A stretch of 39,892 nt of DNA from a virus, in the UHGV virus genome UHGV-0038300; one strand, written 5' to 3'. The notes beneath the pieces are model-generated. The model saw nothing but the letters and a program-made list of their open reading frames with translations, was not told where the DNA came from and searched no databases. A program made the position numbers and the translations under genes. Positions 2,415-33,565 of this stretch are shown here, in pieces (position 1 is the first letter of the stretch; each line of letters starts with the position of its first letter).

Positions 2415-4955
2415 TCATTTTTTTACATTGCCATTTTCAATGGCGAAAATTCTCTCTTCCATATTATCAATTCTCTCCCAGCATTGCTGAATTGATTTAA
2501 CAATAGGTGGGATGAATTCATCGTAACCAAGTGAGTAAACATCATCCCCACCATTTTTCAAGTGATGCTGTAGCCCACCGAACTCAACACCTAATTTTTC
2601 ACACAGTTTCAATACGTCCTGTGCAATAAACCAGTGATGGTATCGTTGACGTTTTTTACTGCCGTCAGGAGTTTTCTGCACTACTTCAAGATATTTTTCT
2701 TCGACATTCTCAATAGCTGATACAGTAATTCCATCAACATCTCGCTCTACTTTTTTTGGTACAATTCTTGTTTTTTCAATAACATCAACATAATCATCAC
2801 GCATATCCCAGCGACCATCGACAGGACGAAGCCCAAGGATAAATTCAATCCCCAGCAAGGTATCTCGGATATCTGTTTTATCACGCGCATCAGATCTGTT
2901 TTGCACAGTTCCATATACATATGTCGTTGTGGAAGAATTGCCAAGCTGCACCTGGTTACTTCCAGACACCCTTGCATCATTGCCAACAGTTGTTGTGTTG
3001 GTAAGTGATGATGTGCTTTCCCCTGATTGAGTTAATCTACCTGAATTATGTCCAATAGCCGTGTTTAATGCGCCGGTTGTATTTGTGACAAGAGAGCCAG
3101 ACCCAATTGCAACGTTACTGCTTCCCGATGTTGTTCCTTTTAATGCCTGCTGTCCAACCGCAACATTATTATCACCCGTTGCTGCTATAAGTGCCATGTG
3201 ACCAATAGAAACGGTAAATGAACCTAGCGTTTGAGTTTCACCGCATGCCCCATAACCAATTACAACAACATTATCTGTAATTGTTGACTCGGTTGCCGCT
3301 CCAGCACCAATAACAACGCTTTCATTCCCGGCAAGATTCTTGCGCATTGCGAACATTCCAATGCCAACATTATCATGCCCAGTCCCTGTACCTGCTGCCT
3401 CCGCAGCACCAAGACAGTTTCCCGCTCTGTAGCCAACCATGGTGTTATTTGAACCAATAGAGAAGTCTCCGGAAAAAGAGCCTACGTATACACTATTAGA
3501 CTGAGAGTAATCTCCAGGATTTCCATTCGCCCGATATCCTACTGCAACTGTATAAATAGTATCTGGAGCCTCAGCCATGGCCTCAAAGCCAACTCCAACG
3601 TTATATCTACCGCCCTTAACTTTTTCTCCTGCACCAAGTCCGAAGAATGAGTTATAGCTCCCGGTTGTTAGCCACTCGCCAGCAACAGAACCTACAGCAG
3701 TGTTTCCTGTTCCAGTACATCGATACAAAGTCAGGAAGCCAACTCCGGTATTATTATTTCCTGAAATATTACTCATCAATGATTTTGACCCAATGGCAGT
3801 ATTGTTAACACCATCGGTCAGATCCTGTAACGCTCGCGGGCCAAATGCTGTATTATCGTAACCCTTTGGCGCTGTTGTTGGATCTGGTAACTCAGGGGTT
3901 AGTTTTTCACCACCACCACCATTGGCACAAAGATTGTAAGATCGAATAAATTCAGCCACTGGCCCAAGTTTTAAATAACCATTGGCAATATTAATTCTGA
4001 CACTTACATTAACTGAGCTACCAGGAGCTTCTATTGTCCTGTCATCAACCCAGGTAAAACTCTGTGGTATCCCGTCATAAGTTAATGTCACATCTCCTTT
4101 ATCATTATAATTATAGAACAATGTATAACGCTCATTTATAGATTCAGAACCTGATGATCCTCCTCTCCTCCACCACTCTGCATTATCAAAAATAAGTAAT
4201 CCCGGACCATAATATTTAGCTTTCTGCCCCAAAATCATAGGGCTTGATAATCTCCATACCCCCTCAGGAACATATATATTGCTACTTATTCTTTCAGCAT
4301 TATTAAAAGCAGTATCACATAGCTCGTCACCACCTTCTTTAGCTCCAAAGTCCAGAACACTGACAGTATCCCGCATCTTATCCTGGAACGTTCGATATAC
4401 TGCTCCAGAACCATACTGAATAAACCAACCAAAACCACCAACAACCCCGGCGATTGCAGCATCGACATAATTACGCATTGAGCGATTATTTACAGCGTCC
4501 TGCTCAAGTGATGGATCTGCAAGGTTAGAAATTCTGTTTTGCTTTGCATCGTAATATTTTGCAAGCAAAGATGGTTTCATCAATGCACGTCTGAACCATC
4601 CAAAACATTGCTGGATCAGCATCGTCAGATAGTCAAAGGCATCTTCATGCACCTCGGGGAAAAATTTTCCCTGATTACGAAGATCAGTCTCCTGCACCAC
4701 ATCAAGCACACGATCTATCGTAATTCGCCATCCAGCAGCAAGCGGCGACGGAAGAACAACAGAACCGCCACTATAAGTGCCCGCCCCAGTTACCGTATAA
4801 CCGGTATCCAGAACCAATTCTGTTACGTTCCCGTTCAGGTCAGACACCTGAACAACCAGGTCGGATTTTTTGAAAATACGGAAGGTGTACGGGAATGATG
4901 TCGTAATGCCGTTACCGGTGTATTCGTTGTGGTCAACTTCGGTTGAGACCGTCAT
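2415..4955 (-). CDS. Tail fibre with glycine-rich fibre repeats and a C-terminal peptidase S74 intramolecular chaperone domain
   Basis: N-terminal TGNGITTSFPYTF fibre-anchor-like motif, long G/N/S-rich repeats, and the C-terminal autoproteolysis motif ...NRSDARDKTDI... followed by a chaperone-like domain. Confidence 0.85.
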   Translation of the reverse strand: MTVSTEVDHNEYTGNGITTSFPYTFRIFKKSDLVVQVSDLNGNVTELVLDTGYTVTGAGTYSGGSVVLPSPLAAGWRITIDRVLDVVQETDLRNQGKFFPEVHEDAFDYLTMLIQQCFGWFRRALMKPSLLAKYYDAKQNRISNLADPSLEQDAVNNRSMRNYVDAAIAGVVGGFGWFIQYGSGAVYRTFQDKMRDTVSVLDFGAKEGGDELCDTAFNNAERISSNIYVPEGVWRLSSPMILGQKAKYYGPGLLIFDNAEWWRRGGSSGSESINERYTLFYNYNDKGDVTLTYDGIPQSFTWVDDRTIEAPGSSVNVSVRINIANGYLKLGPVAEFIRSYNLCANGGGGEKLTPELPDPTTAPKGYDNTAFGPRALQDLTDGVNNTAIGSKSLMSNISGNNNTGVGFLTLYRCTGTGNTAVGSVAGEWLTTGSYNSFFGLGAGEKVKGGRYNVGVGFEAMAEAPDTIYTVAVGYRANGNPGDYSQSNSVYVGSFSGDFSIGSNNTMVGYRAGNCLGAAEAAGTGTGHDNVGIGMFAMRKNLAGNESVVIGAGAATESTITDNVVVIGYGACGETQTLGSFTVSIGHMALIAATGDNNVAVGQQALKGTTSGSSNVAIGSGSLVTNTTGALNTAIGHNSGRLTQSGESTSSLTNTTTVGNDARVSGSNQVQLGNSSTTTYVYGTVQNRSDARDKTDIRDTLLGIEFILGLRPVDGRWDMRDDYVDVIEKTRIVPKKVERDVDGITVSAIENVEEKYLEVVQKTPDGSKKRQRYHHWFIAQDVLKLCEKLGVEFGGLQHHLKNGGDDVYSLGYDEFIPPIVKSIQQCWERIDNMEERIFAIENGNVKK

Positions 4956-5058
4956 GTTAAATCTCCAGATAGTCGCAGCACCCGTTGCGCCGCATATCTG
5001 GTTATTCTATTACCTGAAAAACCACATATGGATAGAAAGACTATAAATACCAATAGAT

Positions 5059-5075
5059 ATTACCTTTCGGGTAAT
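5059..5075. promoter_or_regulatory. 17-bp palindromic operator-like site ATTACC-TTTCG-GGTAAT
   Basis: Perfect 6-5-6 inverted repeat belonging to the dispersed site family; upstream of the LexA box and the tail-fibre gene. Confidence 0.6.
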
Positions 5076-5113
5076 TTGCAAAACGTGCTGGATAGCAAAC
5101 AAATTATTTGCTA

Positions 5114-5129
5114 CTGTATAAATATACAG
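5114..5129. promoter_or_regulatory. LexA (SOS) box CTGT-ATAAATAT-ACAG
   Basis: Perfect CTGT-N8-ACAG with an AT-rich spacer (tactgtataaatatacagtt), 22 bp upstream of the ATG at 5151. Confidence 0.8.
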
Positions 5130-5150
5130 TTATTGCATGGAGAAGATAAG

Positions 5151-5408
5151 ATGCAGCAGTATCACTATCCACTGGAAGACGGATTTACCGAAAGGATTCA
5201 CACGCCGGGAGGCGTCAGATCACTGGTGGAGGGATCGCACTTGATGAAATTACTCCGGGATCTCGATAAGGATGGATTTAATGTCGATGGCCCACTTGCC
5301 GAACTGACTGCACTGATTAACTACGTCACCAGCTCACAGATGTCTATGCGGGATCTGCAAACACATCTCGACTATTGTGCCGAACAATTACGAAAACAAA
5401 CCCGGTAA
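5151..5408 (+). CDS. Small (85 aa) antirepressor-like protein, homologous to the C-terminal domain of the Bro-N antirepressor; candidate SOS-inducible antirepressor
   Basis: RBS ggagaag then ATG 5151. Aligns with the C-terminus of the 6555-7247 product (PL..G....IH.P.GV..L.E.S.LM.LL..L..DG..V.G..AELT......V......RD.QTH..Y). The upstream part of the listed ORF is occupied by regulatory sites. Confidence 0.7.
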   Translation: MQQYHYPLEDGFTERIHTPGGVRSLVEGSHLMKLLRDLDKDGFNVDGPLAELTALINYVTSSQMSMRDLQTHLDYCAEQLRKQTR

Positions 5409-5430
5409 ATTTAAAGGCCGCAAGAGCGGC

Positions 5431-6159
5431 CTATCGTTTCGCTTTGTGCTCATCCCAGCACGTTTTGCACCATGCCATTAAGCCGTCCGCATTTTGATTA
5501 TTAGGGTAAAAGCTGGTTCGTTTTCTGCGGACATTACAAATTGGGCACCACTTCATATGGCGTGTATTCTTTGGGCCATCGAGACACCTTGCACACCACT
5601 TAGTCAATCCATCTGGATTTTTTGACGATTTCCTGAATTTTTCATATGGAAGGTTTATTCTGCATCGCAAGCACTGCTTGCTACCACTTGAAACTCTGTT
5701 AGCTGATTCTTCTTTTGGCGGCGATACAGAAGGTATTCTTGCTGGCTCTGATACTGCCTGAGGTGCTTTTTTAGATGACTGAGACGATATGTCACCACCA
5801 GGGAATCTTCCATGATATGCCGGACGCGTTGACACTCCAGGTGGAAGCTCAGCTGTAAACGGCTTTGGCTGAATCAGTTGCCTCTCTTTTGCTAACTCCT
5901 GCTGTTTATAATATGTCTGGATTACCGCACTATCATAAGCAGGAGGTGCGGAAATATTAGGCGCATTACCTCCAGTTTTTTGAAACTGAGTAGAGGTGTG
6001 TTCTATCACCTGTGTACGATTAATCGTTATCTCCCCATCTTCGGTCTTTATCGTTTTGTTATGATTAACGACCGTACGATCAGAGATCTTAGTCTTGTTC
6101 TGGTTGATAACGTAAATAATCACCGCAACCACACCAACAACTATCCAGAAAACTTCCAT
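5431..6159 (-). CDS. Membrane-anchored protein with a C-terminal duplicated Cys-rich (zinc-ribbon-like) module; function unknown
   Basis: N-terminal TM helix (MEVFWIVVGVVAVIIYVI), Pro/Ser-rich linker, then CLRC...WCARC and CPIC...WCKTC repeats; RBS gaggaaaag before the ATG; operator-like site just upstream. Confidence 0.6.
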   Translation of the reverse strand: MEVFWIVVGVVAVIIYVINQNKTKISDRTVVNHNKTIKTEDGEITINRTQVIEHTSTQFQKTGGNAPNISAPPAYDSAVIQTYYKQQELAKERQLIQPKPFTAELPPGVSTRPAYHGRFPGGDISSQSSKKAPQAVSEPARIPSVSPPKEESANRVSSGSKQCLRCRINLPYEKFRKSSKNPDGLTKWCARCLDGPKNTRHMKWCPICNVRRKRTSFYPNNQNADGLMAWCKTCWDEHKAKR

Positions 6160-6178: not shown

Positions 6179-6195
6179 ATTACCTTAAAGGTAAT
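6179..6195. promoter_or_regulatory. 17-bp palindromic operator-like site ATTACC-TTAAA-GGTAAT
   Basis: Perfect inverted repeat about 20 bp upstream of the 5431-6159 gene start (minus strand). Confidence 0.6.
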
Positions 6196-6271
6196 ATCTT
6201 GCTTTCAGGTGATCAAGCGTTAAACCAAATCAACCAAATACGGTTGATTTTAATATTTCTTCACGTTTATC

Positions 6272-6288
6272 ATTACCTTTGAGGTAAA
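6272..6288. promoter_or_regulatory. 17-bp operator-like site ATTACC-TTTGA-GGTAAA overlapping a putative rightward promoter
   Basis: Overlaps a -10-like TATCAT (6268-6273) set 18 bp after a -35-like TTGATT (6244-6249). Confidence 0.5.
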
Positions 6289-6554
6289 TTTACATCGCAC
6301 TCCTCTTGTGCCATAGTAATCGGGCACTGGCAAAATCCAGTGCCGGGATTGGTCTCCCGGATTACTACAGAGGCACATATGCCGCATAAGCGGTTTTTTT
6401 ATGTGTAAAGCGCACCTATTCTATGGTGGGCTGTGTGGGGGCACCGAAAGGTGCGCCGGGTTCCTTTGTAGCCGGTAAGACCAACTCTGCACAGTTCACC
6501 ACCATCTGATTGGTCTCAGCGGTGGTGATTAACCTAACTACAAAGGTGATCGCC

Positions 6555-7247
6555 ATGAATACCAAACCTTCCATCTTTTCCTTTGAGTCATCCTGCCAGA
6601 TCCGTATGTTCATGATTGACGGAGAACCTTGGTTTGTCACCAAAGATGTGTGCAATGCTTTGAATATTGATGTTACACAAGCGAGAAAACTTGATAAAAA
6701 AGGCTGGAACAAAAAGGGGCTGTATTCAATACAGACCCCTGGTGGAATACAAGAACTATCCATCGTTTCAGAATCAGGTCTCTACATCCTTATTCTGCGT
6801 TGCAAAGAGGCAATGACAGGGGGAACGAGAGCATTCAGATTTCTTGAATGGGTTACAGGTGAGGTTCTTCCTCAGATCCGCCGCACAGGAAGTTACATTA
6901 AAAACTCGCTCCCGCAGGAAGAACGCATAAAGATGGTTGCCGACCAGGTAGCCAACGCCACGGCGTCAGCAGTAATGCAGGCGATGAAGATAGAGAACAA
7001 AACCTACAGTGCCCCGCTGAAGCCCGGCTACCGCAGCCTGATTCATTCGCCGTCTGGTGTTCTCGGCCTGACGGAGAACTCACTGCTGATGAATTTGCTG
7101 AACCAGTTACAGGAAGACGGGCATGATGTATCGGGCGCGGCAGCGGAGCTGACCACCATGTTCTGCTACATCGTCGGTGTGAGCAAATGCCTGCGTGACA
7201 TCCAGACTCACGCGGAGTACATCAACGACAAAGCAGGGTTCTTCTGA
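6555..7247 (+). CDS. Antirepressor with an N-terminal Bro-N domain
   Basis: N-terminus ...FSFESSCQIRMFMIDGEPWFVTKDVCNALNI... is typical of Bro-N/Ant proteins; RBS aaggtga before ATG 6555 (the listed ORF begins at an upstream TTG). Confidence 0.8.
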   Translation: MNTKPSIFSFESSCQIRMFMIDGEPWFVTKDVCNALNIDVTQARKLDKKGWNKKGLYSIQTPGGIQELSIVSESGLYILILRCKEAMTGGTRAFRFLEWVTGEVLPQIRRTGSYIKNSLPQEERIKMVADQVANATASAVMQAMKIENKTYSAPLKPGYRSLIHSPSGVLGLTENSLLMNLLNQLQEDGHDVSGAAAELTTMFCYIVGVSKCLRDIQTHAEYINDKAGFF

Positions 7248-7353: not shown

Positions 7354-7563
7354 ATGGGATTTTGGTTCGCTCGTACAAAAACGAGGGATAATGCACCCAG
7401 CCCTCAGGCAAAAAATGCAGAAGTTCCGGCGTCAGCGCAGGTTAACAAGCGTGGTGGAGTATATATCTCATCACAGCAAATTTCTGAGCTTCCTGAGGTT
7501 AAGGAGATGCGTCGTCTCGCTGCTGCAATTGTTAAACAGGATCTTGCCACTGTAAGGAAGTAG
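7354..7563 (+). CDS. Small hypothetical protein (69 aa), first gene of a two-gene accessory module
   Basis: Strong RBS gaggaggag 6 nt before the ATG; its stop TAG overlaps the GTG start of the next ORF by one nucleotide. Confidence 0.55.
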   Translation: MGFWFARTKTRDNAPSPQAKNAEVPASAQVNKRGGVYISSQQISELPEVKEMRRLAAAIVKQDLATVRK

Positions 7564-8429
7564 TGTTGCTAGCTCTTCTAATTATCCCAATCCTGGTTAG
7601 CGGTTATATTATGATAACCGCTAACCAGTATCATTATTTCCGTTTATACCGACACGAAGGCCAGCTTCTTTATATGAAAGTAGCGGCACTAGGTACATAT
7701 TGCCTTGTTGCATCAGTAATAATTGCAGCCGCTATAAAATATAAATGGCCTGATTTTCACCTAGTTCACGATATGGTGGAAACTTTTAATGTAACATCAA
7801 AACCAGAAACAGATAGAATTTACATGTGGCTGCTTCTTCTCTCAGCCACATCCATTTGCTTCTCTTTGTGTTATGTGTCTGTTGTGTGGGTGAAAGATTT
7901 TCTTCTTGGTTGTTTTTATAAACGTGATATTTACGAGCAAAAAACAGAGGCAATGAAGGCCAGAGTACTGCGAAAAACTTACTCGCAAGGTTCTTTAGAC
8001 TTACTATTGCTTGATGCTATTGAATCGGATCCTAAACGACCAATGCTGATTACTTTATCATCAAACAAAGTGTATGTTGGAATAATAAATGGTTCTGGTG
8101 AACCAACGGAAAATCAGGGTCCGCATCAGCACATATCTTTTGTTCCTTTAATGTCAGGATACAGGAACAAAGAAAACTTATCTGTCACATTCACTAATGC
8201 TTATCCAGGAGAAATACAGGTCAAGCGGACTGCAGCAATAAGAGGAATTAGCAGAAAGAAAGTGCCAGGACTTGAGATCATGGTGTCTATTGACGAAATA
8301 AGTTATATATCATGGTTTGATTTTGAAGTATATAAAGCAACAAATAACAAAGTAGAATCCAGGGGGCACGTTATTCGTGTTACCAAAAATGGAAGAAATA
8401 TATATCAAAGAAATAGCAAAAAAGAATAG
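7563..8429 (+). CDS. Hypothetical membrane protein (3 N-terminal TM helices plus a ~170-aa soluble C-terminal domain); candidate exclusion/abortive-infection-type accessory protein
   Basis: Long ORF with hydrophobic helices at about aa 2-18, 35-58 and 85-110; markedly AT-rich compared with flanking phage genes; exact start (GTG 7563 or a nearby codon) uncertain. Confidence 0.6.
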   Translation: MLLALLIIPILVSGYIMITANQYHYFRLYRHEGQLLYMKVAALGTYCLVASVIIAAAIKYKWPDFHLVHDMVETFNVTSKPETDRIYMWLLLLSATSICFSLCYVSVVWVKDFLLGCFYKRDIYEQKTEAMKARVLRKTYSQGSLDLLLLDAIESDPKRPMLITLSSNKVYVGIINGSGEPTENQGPHQHISFVPLMSGYRNKENLSVTFTNAYPGEIQVKRTAAIRGISRKKVPGLEIMVSIDEISYISWFDFEVYKATNNKVESRGHVIRVTKNGRNIYQRNSKKE

Positions 8430-25281: not shown

Positions 25282-25358
25282 GTGGCATTAGCTCAGTCGG
25301 ACAGAGCAACCGCCTTCTAAGCGGTTGGTCGCAGGTTCGAATCCTGCATGCCACGCCA
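25282..25358 (+). tRNA. tRNA-Arg (anticodon UCU, reads AGA), 77 nt with encoded CCA
   Basis: Hand-folded cloverleaf: acceptor gtggcat/atgccac, D-stem gctc/gagc, anticodon stem accgc/gcggt with loop cTTCTAa (U33, A37), T-arm gcagg-TTCGAAT-cctgc, discriminator G, CCA. Confidence 0.85.
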
Positions 25359-25587
25359 GAATCACGCCTAAGGACCGTGATGCCAGAAGTTCCAGGTGCT
25401 TGGCGGTGATGGTTTCCCTTGAGGGACTATCACCGCCCTTTTTACAGCAGGACGCCATTGCGATGACTTCATGCTGTAAACCCGTACAGCCACGGAAGGC
25501 AAAACTCATTGCTTCCAGTTCGCCCGGTTCGCCGGGCATTTTTTTAAGGTGTGAATCATGAAATACGAATTCGATGGATTTTGATGT

Positions 25588-32460: not shown

Positions 32461-32691
32461 TCATGAGTAGAAGAAGTATGCCAGTTCTGCTTTTGAGCGC
32501 AGCCATTGCCTTGTTTTACAGGCTTTAAAAAGCCCATTCATCAATACTTTACCTGGCATTTTGCGCTTACCTGTTAAGTGAGTCTGGATATAGTGACTCG
32601 TCGTTCCGGCTTCCTGTGCGAAGGCTTCACGCTCATCCGGAGTAAGTGCAAGCCAGTGCTTTTTGAAATCGAAATGTCCGTTATCGCTCAT
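32461..32691 (-). CDS. Cro/YdaS-like small HTH regulator
   Basis: 76 aa, divergent from the repressor gene; ...AQEAGTTSHYIQTHLTGKRKMPGKV... resembles YdaS/Cro-type HTH proteins. Confidence 0.6.
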   Translation of the reverse strand: MSDNGHFDFKKHWLALTPDEREAFAQEAGTTSHYIQTHLTGKRKMPGKVLMNGLFKACKTRQWLRSKAELAYFFYS

Positions 32692-32726: not shown

Positions 32727-32791
32727 TTCACCCATAAGGTAACAAAAATCAAGGATAGTTACCTATGAGGTGCATTTACCTGTTGGGTAAT
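32727..32791. promoter_or_regulatory. Right operator region: three 17-bp sites at 32727-32743, 32758-32774 and 32775-32791 between the divergent cro-like and repressor genes
   Basis: TTcACC-CATAA-GGTAAC, GTTACC-TATGA-GGTgcA and TTTACC-TGTTG-GGTAAT; tripartite arrangement as in lambdoid OR. Confidence 0.65.
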
Positions 32792-32845: not shown

Positions 32846-33430
32846 ATGAAAAGTATCCAGGACGTCCGCAGGCAAAATCTCAACGACTTGATCGACCGTG
32901 AATTCAATGGTGTTCAGACGCGGATGGCAGAAAAACTTGGAACTCAGGCAAATCTGGTAAACCGCTGGGCTCTTGGCAAGAAGGTTATCGGCGACCAGGT
33001 TGCGCGAAAAATTGAAGCTGCCGCCAATAAACCACGTAACTGGCTTGATATCGATCGCTCGCTTTCTCAGGAAGGTTTTCAGCCTGTCGGCCCAAGCGAC
33101 ATTGGTCAGCTGGCGGCTCACAACCTGGAACGCTGGATGAGCGAAAGCCGCGACCTTTCAACACAGGGAAAACTTCACCGCGCATCCGGCGTCGCCCAGG
33201 TGACAATCAGCCGCCTGTTAAACAATGAGGTCAGCGTTTCCATTTCCACCCTGGAGAATGTTGCATCCGCATTCGGGCGTCACGGCTATGAATTACTGAT
33301 TCACCCGCACGACCCTGCGACCATCAACTATGACCGCTCGCGCTACGCATTGTTACCCGAAACCGAGAAAGCAAAGATCGAAAGTTACATTGAATTTGTC
33401 ATCAACCAGAACGAAAAAAACAAACAATAA
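32846..33430 (+). CDS. CI-like prophage repressor with an N-terminal XRE-type HTH, a second HTH-like segment and no LexA/S24 peptidase domain
   Basis: HTH ...VQTRMAEKLGTQANLVNRWALGKK...; no Ser-Lys peptidase signature seen; divergent from the cro-like gene and followed by a strong terminator. Confidence 0.65.
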   Translation: MKSIQDVRRQNLNDLIDREFNGVQTRMAEKLGTQANLVNRWALGKKVIGDQVARKIEAAANKPRNWLDIDRSLSQEGFQPVGPSDIGQLAAHNLERWMSESRDLSTQGKLHRASGVAQVTISRLLNNEVSVSISTLENVASAFGRHGYELLIHPHDPATINYDRSRYALLPETEKAKIESYIEFVINQNEKNKQ

Positions 33431-33486: not shown

Positions 33487-33503
33487 ATTACCTAATGGGT
33501 AAT
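33487..33503. promoter_or_regulatory. Left operator site 1, ATTACC-TAATG-GGTAAT
   Basis: Perfect inverted repeat just after the repressor terminator. Confidence 0.65.
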
Positions 33504-33548
33504 TTTTTTAACTCATATCTATTGACATCAAACCAAATACGCATAATT

Positions 33549-33565
33549 ATTACCTCAACGGTAAC
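33549..33565. promoter_or_regulatory. Left operator site 2, ATTACC-TCAAC-GGTAAC, at the early-left promoter
   Basis: Lies downstream of a consensus -35 TTGACA (33523-33528) and just upstream of the first early-left ORF; an extra GGTAAC half-site at 33573-33578. Confidence 0.6.

Follow-up and report, generated by a model that had tools for sequence, protein, structure and literature searches.

The open reading frame of 85 codons on the plus strand at positions 5151-5408 of the phage DNA analysed here (a stretch of 39,892 nucleotides, referred to below as the window) appears to be the ant gene of the genus Uetakevirus, and we would place at roughly 0.9 the probability that it encodes a LexA-repressed antirepressor through which the SOS response induces the prophage by way of a repressor, Rep, that cannot be cleaved. 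The initial annotation of this DNA had argued for SOS induction through a LexA-controlled antirepressor and not through repressor cleavage, and that proposal is supported by an element-by-element match to phage SPC32H. In the lysogen, host LexA would occupy the box at 5112-5131, which probably spans both the -10 element and the start point of ant transcription, and would so keep ant silent; upon DNA damage, RecA would become active, LexA would cleave itself and ant would be transcribed. The 85-residue Ant would then bind Rep, for which self-cleavage should be impossible because it has no S24 domain, and Rep would leave the putative TTACC-N5-GGTAA operators that lie ahead of most transcription units, with expression of the lytic genes as the predicted outcome. 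For the phage of the window itself, we infer LexA binding, the exact promoter and Ant-Rep binding. The LexA-Ant-Rep switch is already known from SPC32H, where it has reportedly been worked out both genetically and structurally (in work by Kim and Ryu from 2013 and by Kim and co-workers from 2016), and for that reason the window adds little on the mechanism. One later account gives the order of events in SPC32H as LexA self-cleavage, production of the antirepressor, and inhibition of the repressor by protein-protein interaction (PMC7380047), and another describes Rep as binding DNA as a tetramer that is broken when an Ant tetramer binds two Rep dimers (PMC9638917).

To judge from its sequence, the window is a phiV10/epsilon15-like temperate podophage of the genus Uetakevirus. 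The region around ant is 92-97% identical to that of the Escherichia phages TL-2011b, EC.W1-9, HEMP4, phiv142-3 and phiV10 and is more distantly akin to that of the Salmonella phages of the epsilon15/SPN1S group, all of which are likewise temperate podophages of this genus. SPC32H belongs to the same genus, and its gene order is shared by the window, in that ant lies outside the immunity region and diverges from the tail-fibre or tail-spike gene. Besides the host, which here is E. coli, two differences from SPC32H bear on what follows: Rep of the window is only 42% identical to its counterpart, and SPC32H is without a module of IsrK-like RNA, C4-type RNA and Bro-N gene, carrying a second Ant-like domain, that adjoins ant in the window.

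The product of ant is the clearest point of contact with the characterised system. It has the same length as the SPC32H protein and is 86.7% identical (residues 2-84) to the product of the SPC32H/SPC32N gene annotated as "ant: anti-repressor protein" (KC911856), of which we take it to be the orthologue, and its sole match among solved structures is PDB 5D50 chain E, an 86-residue "Anti-repressor protein" (E=1.4e-46). In the phage collection, a translated search placed Ant in 35 records. A longer reading of 126 amino acids from the ATG at 5028 was set aside, as its start would precede the LexA box and the characterised homologue and the crystal chain both have 86 residues. A Pfam match to DUF724 (17 bits against a cut-off of 38) was below threshold, and Pfam gave no Bro-N (PF02498) match in the 85-residue protein; the domain has no model in Pfam or NCBIfam, and PHROG 450, into which the protein falls, lists unknown function. 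The same locus occurs in 531 of 5,426 complete E. coli genomes, where the best 10 of the 531 matches are all annotated "hypothetical protein". With such labels, and with no Pfam or NCBIfam model to replace them, the SOS-inducibility of these O-antigen-modifying prophages is invisible in annotation, and the practical value of the comparison lies in the annotation of the ant locus.

The initial annotation had pointed to a LexA box of the form CTGT-N8-ACAG at 5114-5129, ahead of an 85-residue frame with a ribosome-binding site, and a reading of the sequence confirms each of these elements. The ribosome-binding site is GGAG at 5139-5142 (plus strand), 8 nt before the ATG, and is invariant in an alignment of ten phages. 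The full box, TACTGTATAAATATACAGTT at 5112-5131, agrees at 18 of 20 positions with the E. coli LexA consensus, TACTG(TA)5CAGTA. No other site in the 39.9-kb window comes within three mismatches of that consensus, and 100 dinucleotide-preserving shuffles of the window yielded none. The bare CTGT-N8-ACAG pattern is weaker evidence than the 20-mer match: it occurs twice where 0.57 occurrences are expected, and 7 of 100 shuffles also reach two. Its second occurrence, at 25474-25489, was ruled out as a LexA box and looks like a product of chance, since a G+C-rich spacer separates its half-sites and the flanks depart from the consensus. That the bare pattern is not rare does lend something to the idea that the sequence ahead of ant is a chance palindrome, and its place within a divergent intergenic region would also suit a site that serves the tail-fibre gene, in which cases ant would not be SOS-regulated. 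The uniqueness of the 20-mer and its absence from the shuffles argue against chance, while spacing argues against a tail-fibre role, with 21 nt separating the ACAG of the box core from the ATG of ant at 5151 as compared to about 160 nt between the box and the tail-fibre start. Together with the conservation of the box across loci and a natural mutation inside it, both considered next, these points make a box unconnected with ant extremely improbable.

The upstream region of ant was aligned for ten phages of Escherichia, Salmonella, Enterobacter and Klebsiella, and seven further loci were obtained with one peptide pattern from species-representative genomes of Citrobacter (two species), Superficieibacter, Pseudocitrobacter, Scandinavium, Klebsiella and Buttiauxella; none of these seven is a version in which the Ant-like domain is fused to a longer protein. 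A LexA-like box is found in 17 of 17 loci at the aligned position, that of SPC32H included, and equally far from the start codon, in company with Ant proteins whose identity falls as low as 59%. Among the 13 distinct box sequences, the TGT of the left half and the ATACAG of the right half are invariant while the spacer, at positions 7-12, varies, the Klebsiella-type boxes having ATGT in place of CTGT. Invariant half-sites around a variable spacer are the pattern expected of a protein-binding site and not of simple shared ancestry. The pair SPC32H and SPC32N supplies a natural mutant: in the 6.2-kb stretch that was compared, the two genomes show two base differences, one of which is a C-to-A change in SPC32N that alters the CAG of the LexA box, so that the box reads TTTATACAGTG in SPC32H and TTTATAAAGTG in SPC32N. 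Kim and Ryu (2013) reportedly found just two nucleotide differences between these phages, one of which, within the LexA site that overlaps the promoter of ant, is said to make Ant synthesis constitutive and to force lytic growth.

The promoter that LexA would control is less plainly marked. A scan for the sigma-70 consensus reported no plus-strand promoter upstream of ant, and several hexamer pairs picked by eye were discarded, either for want of conservation or because the ribosome-binding site would be lost. We propose as a putative promoter the segment 5089-5117 (plus strand), with a -35 element TGGATA at 5089-5094, a spacer of 17 nt and a -10 element TACTGT at 5112-5117, because the SOS promoter p95 of phage 186 offers an analogue, its annotated -10 being a TACTGT that forms the left edge of the LexA box of 186, and because a CTGGA.A block lying 17 nt upstream of TACTGT is invariant in 10 of 10 aligned phages. 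At the other end of the gene, a G+C-rich hairpin at 5415-5432, reported for the minus strand and likely a terminator, lies between ant and the convergent open reading frame at 5431-6159; in epsilon15, a terminator is annotated at the equivalent place.

The predicted target of Ant is encoded at 32846-33430 (plus strand) by a gene for a protein of 194 amino acids. The initial annotation had described a repressor with helix-turn-helix motifs and without a recognisable LexA/S24 peptidase domain, and profile searches bear this out. An alignment covering 98% of Rep shows 41.8% identity to the product of the SPC32H gene annotated as "rep: repressor", and the two proteins are thus homologous over their full length, each with two HTH-type domains and without S24. 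The Rep chain of the solved complex, 5D50_A, matches at E=4e-42 and a C-terminal fragment, 5D4Z_A, at E=4e-20; in Pfam, residues 106-147 match a Cro/C1-type HTH, and residues 21-61 match a YdaS-type HTH less strongly. No S24 peptidase was detected in Pfam at E<=0.1 or in NCBIfam, where weak HTH-family matches were the only ones, and no LexA or lambda CI chain appears among the PDB matches at E<=0.01. As the 5D50 and 5D4Z domains account for all 194 residues, no part of the protein is left over for a cleavage domain like that of LexA. These results weigh on the reading in which RecA-stimulated self-cleavage, in the manner of lambda CI, inactivates Rep alongside Ant or in its place, with ant as an accessory. 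A precedent for it is available in P22, which according to PMC7380047 has an antirepressor and is nevertheless induced by cleavage of its repressor; for Rep of the window, our searches turned up no sequence support for self-cleavage, and we consider such a route highly improbable.

In the proposed switch Rep leaves its operators, and the window contains candidates for such sites. The palindrome TTACC-N5-GGTAA (at most one mismatch) occurs 15 times where 0.75 occurrences are expected, as 15-bp sites that start at 5060, 6180, 6273, 7313, 24945, 27743, 27761, 30383, 30445, 32391, 32728, 32776, 33488, 33550 and 39669, and the sites that were examined lie between open reading frames and ahead of most transcription units. 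Two of them (32728-32790) fall between a cro-like gene (32461-32691, minus strand) and rep and have equivalents in SPC32H; another two (33488-33564) lie downstream of rep, where they precede the next early operon, and have equivalents in both SPC32H and epsilon15. SPC32H carries three copies on each side of rep and one upstream of ant, so that the same palindromes flank rep in both phages, and in the GenBank record of epsilon15 the sequence TTACC-N5-GGTAA is annotated as repressor-binding sites. We infer that the palindrome is the operator of Rep; its retention despite Rep sequences that are only ~42% identical fits the invariant NLVNRW in the N-terminal HTH. The distribution of the sites suggests direct silencing of almost all operons by a single repressor, and operator specificity may be shared across the genus.

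One of these sites deserves separate mention. The palindrome at 5060-5074 lies in the divergent intergenic region between ant and the tail-fibre gene, some 15 bp ahead of the proposed -35 element, and is conserved in 10 of 10 aligned phages and in 6 of the 7 further loci. Its most probable role is in the control of the divergent tail-fibre promoter. Were ant, too, repressed by Rep at this site, cleavage of LexA alone might be insufficient to start the switch, and this possibility counts against the mechanism that we favour.

The initial annotation had likened the circuit to those of phage 186 and the Gifsy phages. The likeness holds at the level of circuit logic and fails as sequence homology to Tum. 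Tum is the antirepressor of the 186 CI repressor, and the 186 system resembles that proposed for the window in that a small antirepressor gene, located at a distance from the immunity region, has a LexA box across its promoter; the 186 box, TACTGTATGTTTATACAGTA, is nearly identical to that of the window. The two differ in that 186 is a P2-like myophage and Tum is a protein of 146 amino acids with a DinI-like part. In a single pairwise BLASTP comparison of Ant with Tum, 30% identity over 47 residues with gaps gave E=0.056, which is not significant; Ant was therefore rejected as a Tum homologue, and the resemblance is one of function and circuit logic, not of family. Ant is likewise set beside GfoA and GfhA of Gifsy-1 and Gifsy-3 by the description of their circuits: the Gifsy phages are lambdoid siphophages, and Kim and Ryu reportedly describe the SPC32H Ant as structurally distinct from GfoA/GfhA. 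What is shared is the pairing of a non-cleavable repressor with a small antirepressor that is under LexA control and whose gene is not part of the immunity region (PMC3121763).

What further distinguishes the window from SPC32H is a second antirepressor candidate, encoded at 6555-7247 (plus strand) by a gene for 230 amino acids, whose preferred start is the ATG at 6555 rather than the TTG at 6510. The protein matches Bro-N in Pfam (E=2e-13) and PHROG 450 (E=3e-37), and its last ~80 residues (DNA 6999-7232) are Ant-like, with 43% identity to Ant over 74 residues (E=1e-16). The suggestion in the initial annotation that the small protein is a free-standing copy of the C-terminal domain of the Bro-N protein agrees with this identity and with the assignment of both to PHROG 450. 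Its further suggestion, that the shared domain is a candidate repressor-binding module, is in keeping with the likeness, but the reasoning has to be turned around: it is the free-standing Ant that is a known binder of Rep, and since that protein was crystallised with Rep, the C-terminal domain of the Bro-N protein is predicted to target Rep too.

The control region of this gene has a different character from that of ant. In the scan of the window at up to three mismatches, no LexA box was found near the Bro-N gene. Its leader contains an IsrK-like RNA (6324-6400, plus strand; Rfam RF01394, 74.7 bits) and a C4 antisense-type RNA (6419-6506, plus strand; RF01695, 78.6 bits), both above the gathering threshold. 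The promoter region of the unit holds two operator-like palindromes, at 6180-6194 and 6273-6287, the second of which is flanked by promoter-like hexamers at 6244-6273 and 6289-6317. A terminator-like hairpin is seen at 6381-6394 within the leader. The immI locus of phage P1 has the order c4-icd-ant, in which c4 is an antisense RNA, and immI of P1 and P7 thus offers a parallel for a C4-type RNA in the leader of an antirepressor-like gene; the isrK-orf45-anrP unit of Gifsy-1 offers one for an IsrK-type RNA with its own terminator in an antirepressor leader (Hershko-Shalev et al. 2016, PMC4825925). The window departs from both in the SPC32H-Ant-like C-terminus of its Bro-N protein and in the Rep-operator-like palindromes at the promoter. 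By analogy with immI, the arrangement could provide anti-immunity upon superinfection or positive feedback after derepression. Four relatives, phiV10, TL-2011b, Tyrion and the Klebsiella phage ST512-KPC3phi13.3, share the pair of IsrK and C4 RNAs, which is missing from SPC32H, epsilon15 and BUCT711; such a distribution indicates that the module supplements the LexA-Ant switch and does not take its place. In phiV10 (4071-4750), the Bro-N gene is shortened to 194 codons and followed by a frame of 29, and the genome gives a single Ant-like match; the Ant-like C-terminal domain of the Bro-N protein, which is kept in the window, has seemingly been lost there.

The Ant-like domain is found more widely. 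A profile search of 1.84 billion representatives returned 61 with such a domain at E<=1e-3, mostly free-standing proteins of 80-95 amino acids, and in some longer proteins it forms the C-terminus behind N-terminal parts of the AntA, Bro-N, Phage_pRha or ORF6N type. A tentative reading, to which we give distinctly less than even odds, is that the Ant fold is portable and that the window encodes two antirepressors with the same Rep-binding domain that answer to different inputs, one to DNA damage through LexA and the other to Rep-operator-like palindromes together with the IsrK and C4 RNAs. On this reading, the fusions suggest that the C-terminal domain is what selects the repressor in the AntA, Bro-N, Rha and ORF6N families of "antirepressors". 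The finding of the domain behind Bro-N and three other N-terminal domains offers a modest new lead on the C-termini of the Bro, Rha and AntA proteins, and it is in this second Ant-like domain under different control, and in the unequal divergence of Ant and Rep, that the remaining interest of the window lies.

Across the family, Ant and Rep have diverged out of step. Relative to SPC32H, the proteins of the window are 87% (Ant) and 42% (Rep) identical, and relative to the Klebsiella phages the values are 60-64% and 45%. Either independent recombination of modules or the contact of Ant with a conserved surface of Rep would give such a pattern. Given the 42% and 87% identities to SPC32H, the binding of the window's Ant to the window's own Rep is an extrapolation, and one may ask whether ant is LexA-controlled but acts elsewhere, either on the repressor of another prophage or redundantly with the Bro-N/Ant-C protein. 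The unequal divergence itself and the presence in the window of a second protein with an Ant-like domain both lean that way, as does the documented action in trans of Gifsy antirepressors on non-cognate repressors, which allows heteroimmune phages to engage in cross-talk (Lemire et al. 2011, PMC3121763). Against it stand the co-occurrence of Rep with Ant in 35 of the 35 Ant-encoding phage records and the set of invariant residues that the C-terminal domain of Rep keeps across the family. Redundancy with the Bro-N protein is further opposed by SPC32H, epsilon15 and BUCT711, which keep ant and its LexA box without having the Bro-N module, and the standing of the Bro-N/Ant-C protein as an effective antirepressor is weakened by phiV10, whose shortened Bro-N gene is without an Ant-like match. 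We accordingly regard an Ant that bypasses its own Rep as quite improbable and retain the switch in which Ant acts on the Rep of its own prophage. If the slower divergence of Ant than of Rep and the shared operator half-sites are taken together, cross-induction among heterologous Uetakevirus prophages would, if true, be possible.

Several other genes lie in the neighbourhood of ant. The tail-fibre protein (2415-4955, minus strand), encoded divergently from ant, keeps the N-terminus conserved in the genus, and the remainder is unlike that of phiV10, TL-2011b and SPC32H; this is a host-range cassette exchange of the usual kind, and the break in similarity adjoins the ant promoter region. The open reading frame convergent with ant (5431-6159, minus strand) encodes 242 amino acids with a hydrophobic N-terminal stretch resembling a membrane anchor and two Cys-rich motifs, which match endonuclease VII, Lar-like and HNH PHROGs over ~45 residues only. 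Over its full length the protein matches PHROG 6762 (unknown function), and neither SPC32H nor epsilon15 encodes it; a Pfam match to Stc1 was below threshold. Between ant and the structural operon, in a variable, moron-like region, the frame at 7563-8429 (plus strand) encodes 288 amino acids with a hydrophobic N-terminal part that is membrane-spanning in appearance; it has no Pfam match and falls into PHROG 3630 (unknown function). Farther along the window, a tRNA-Arg gene (anticodon TCT) is located at 25282-25358 on the plus strand, in a stretch that has only short overlapping open reading frames on both strands.
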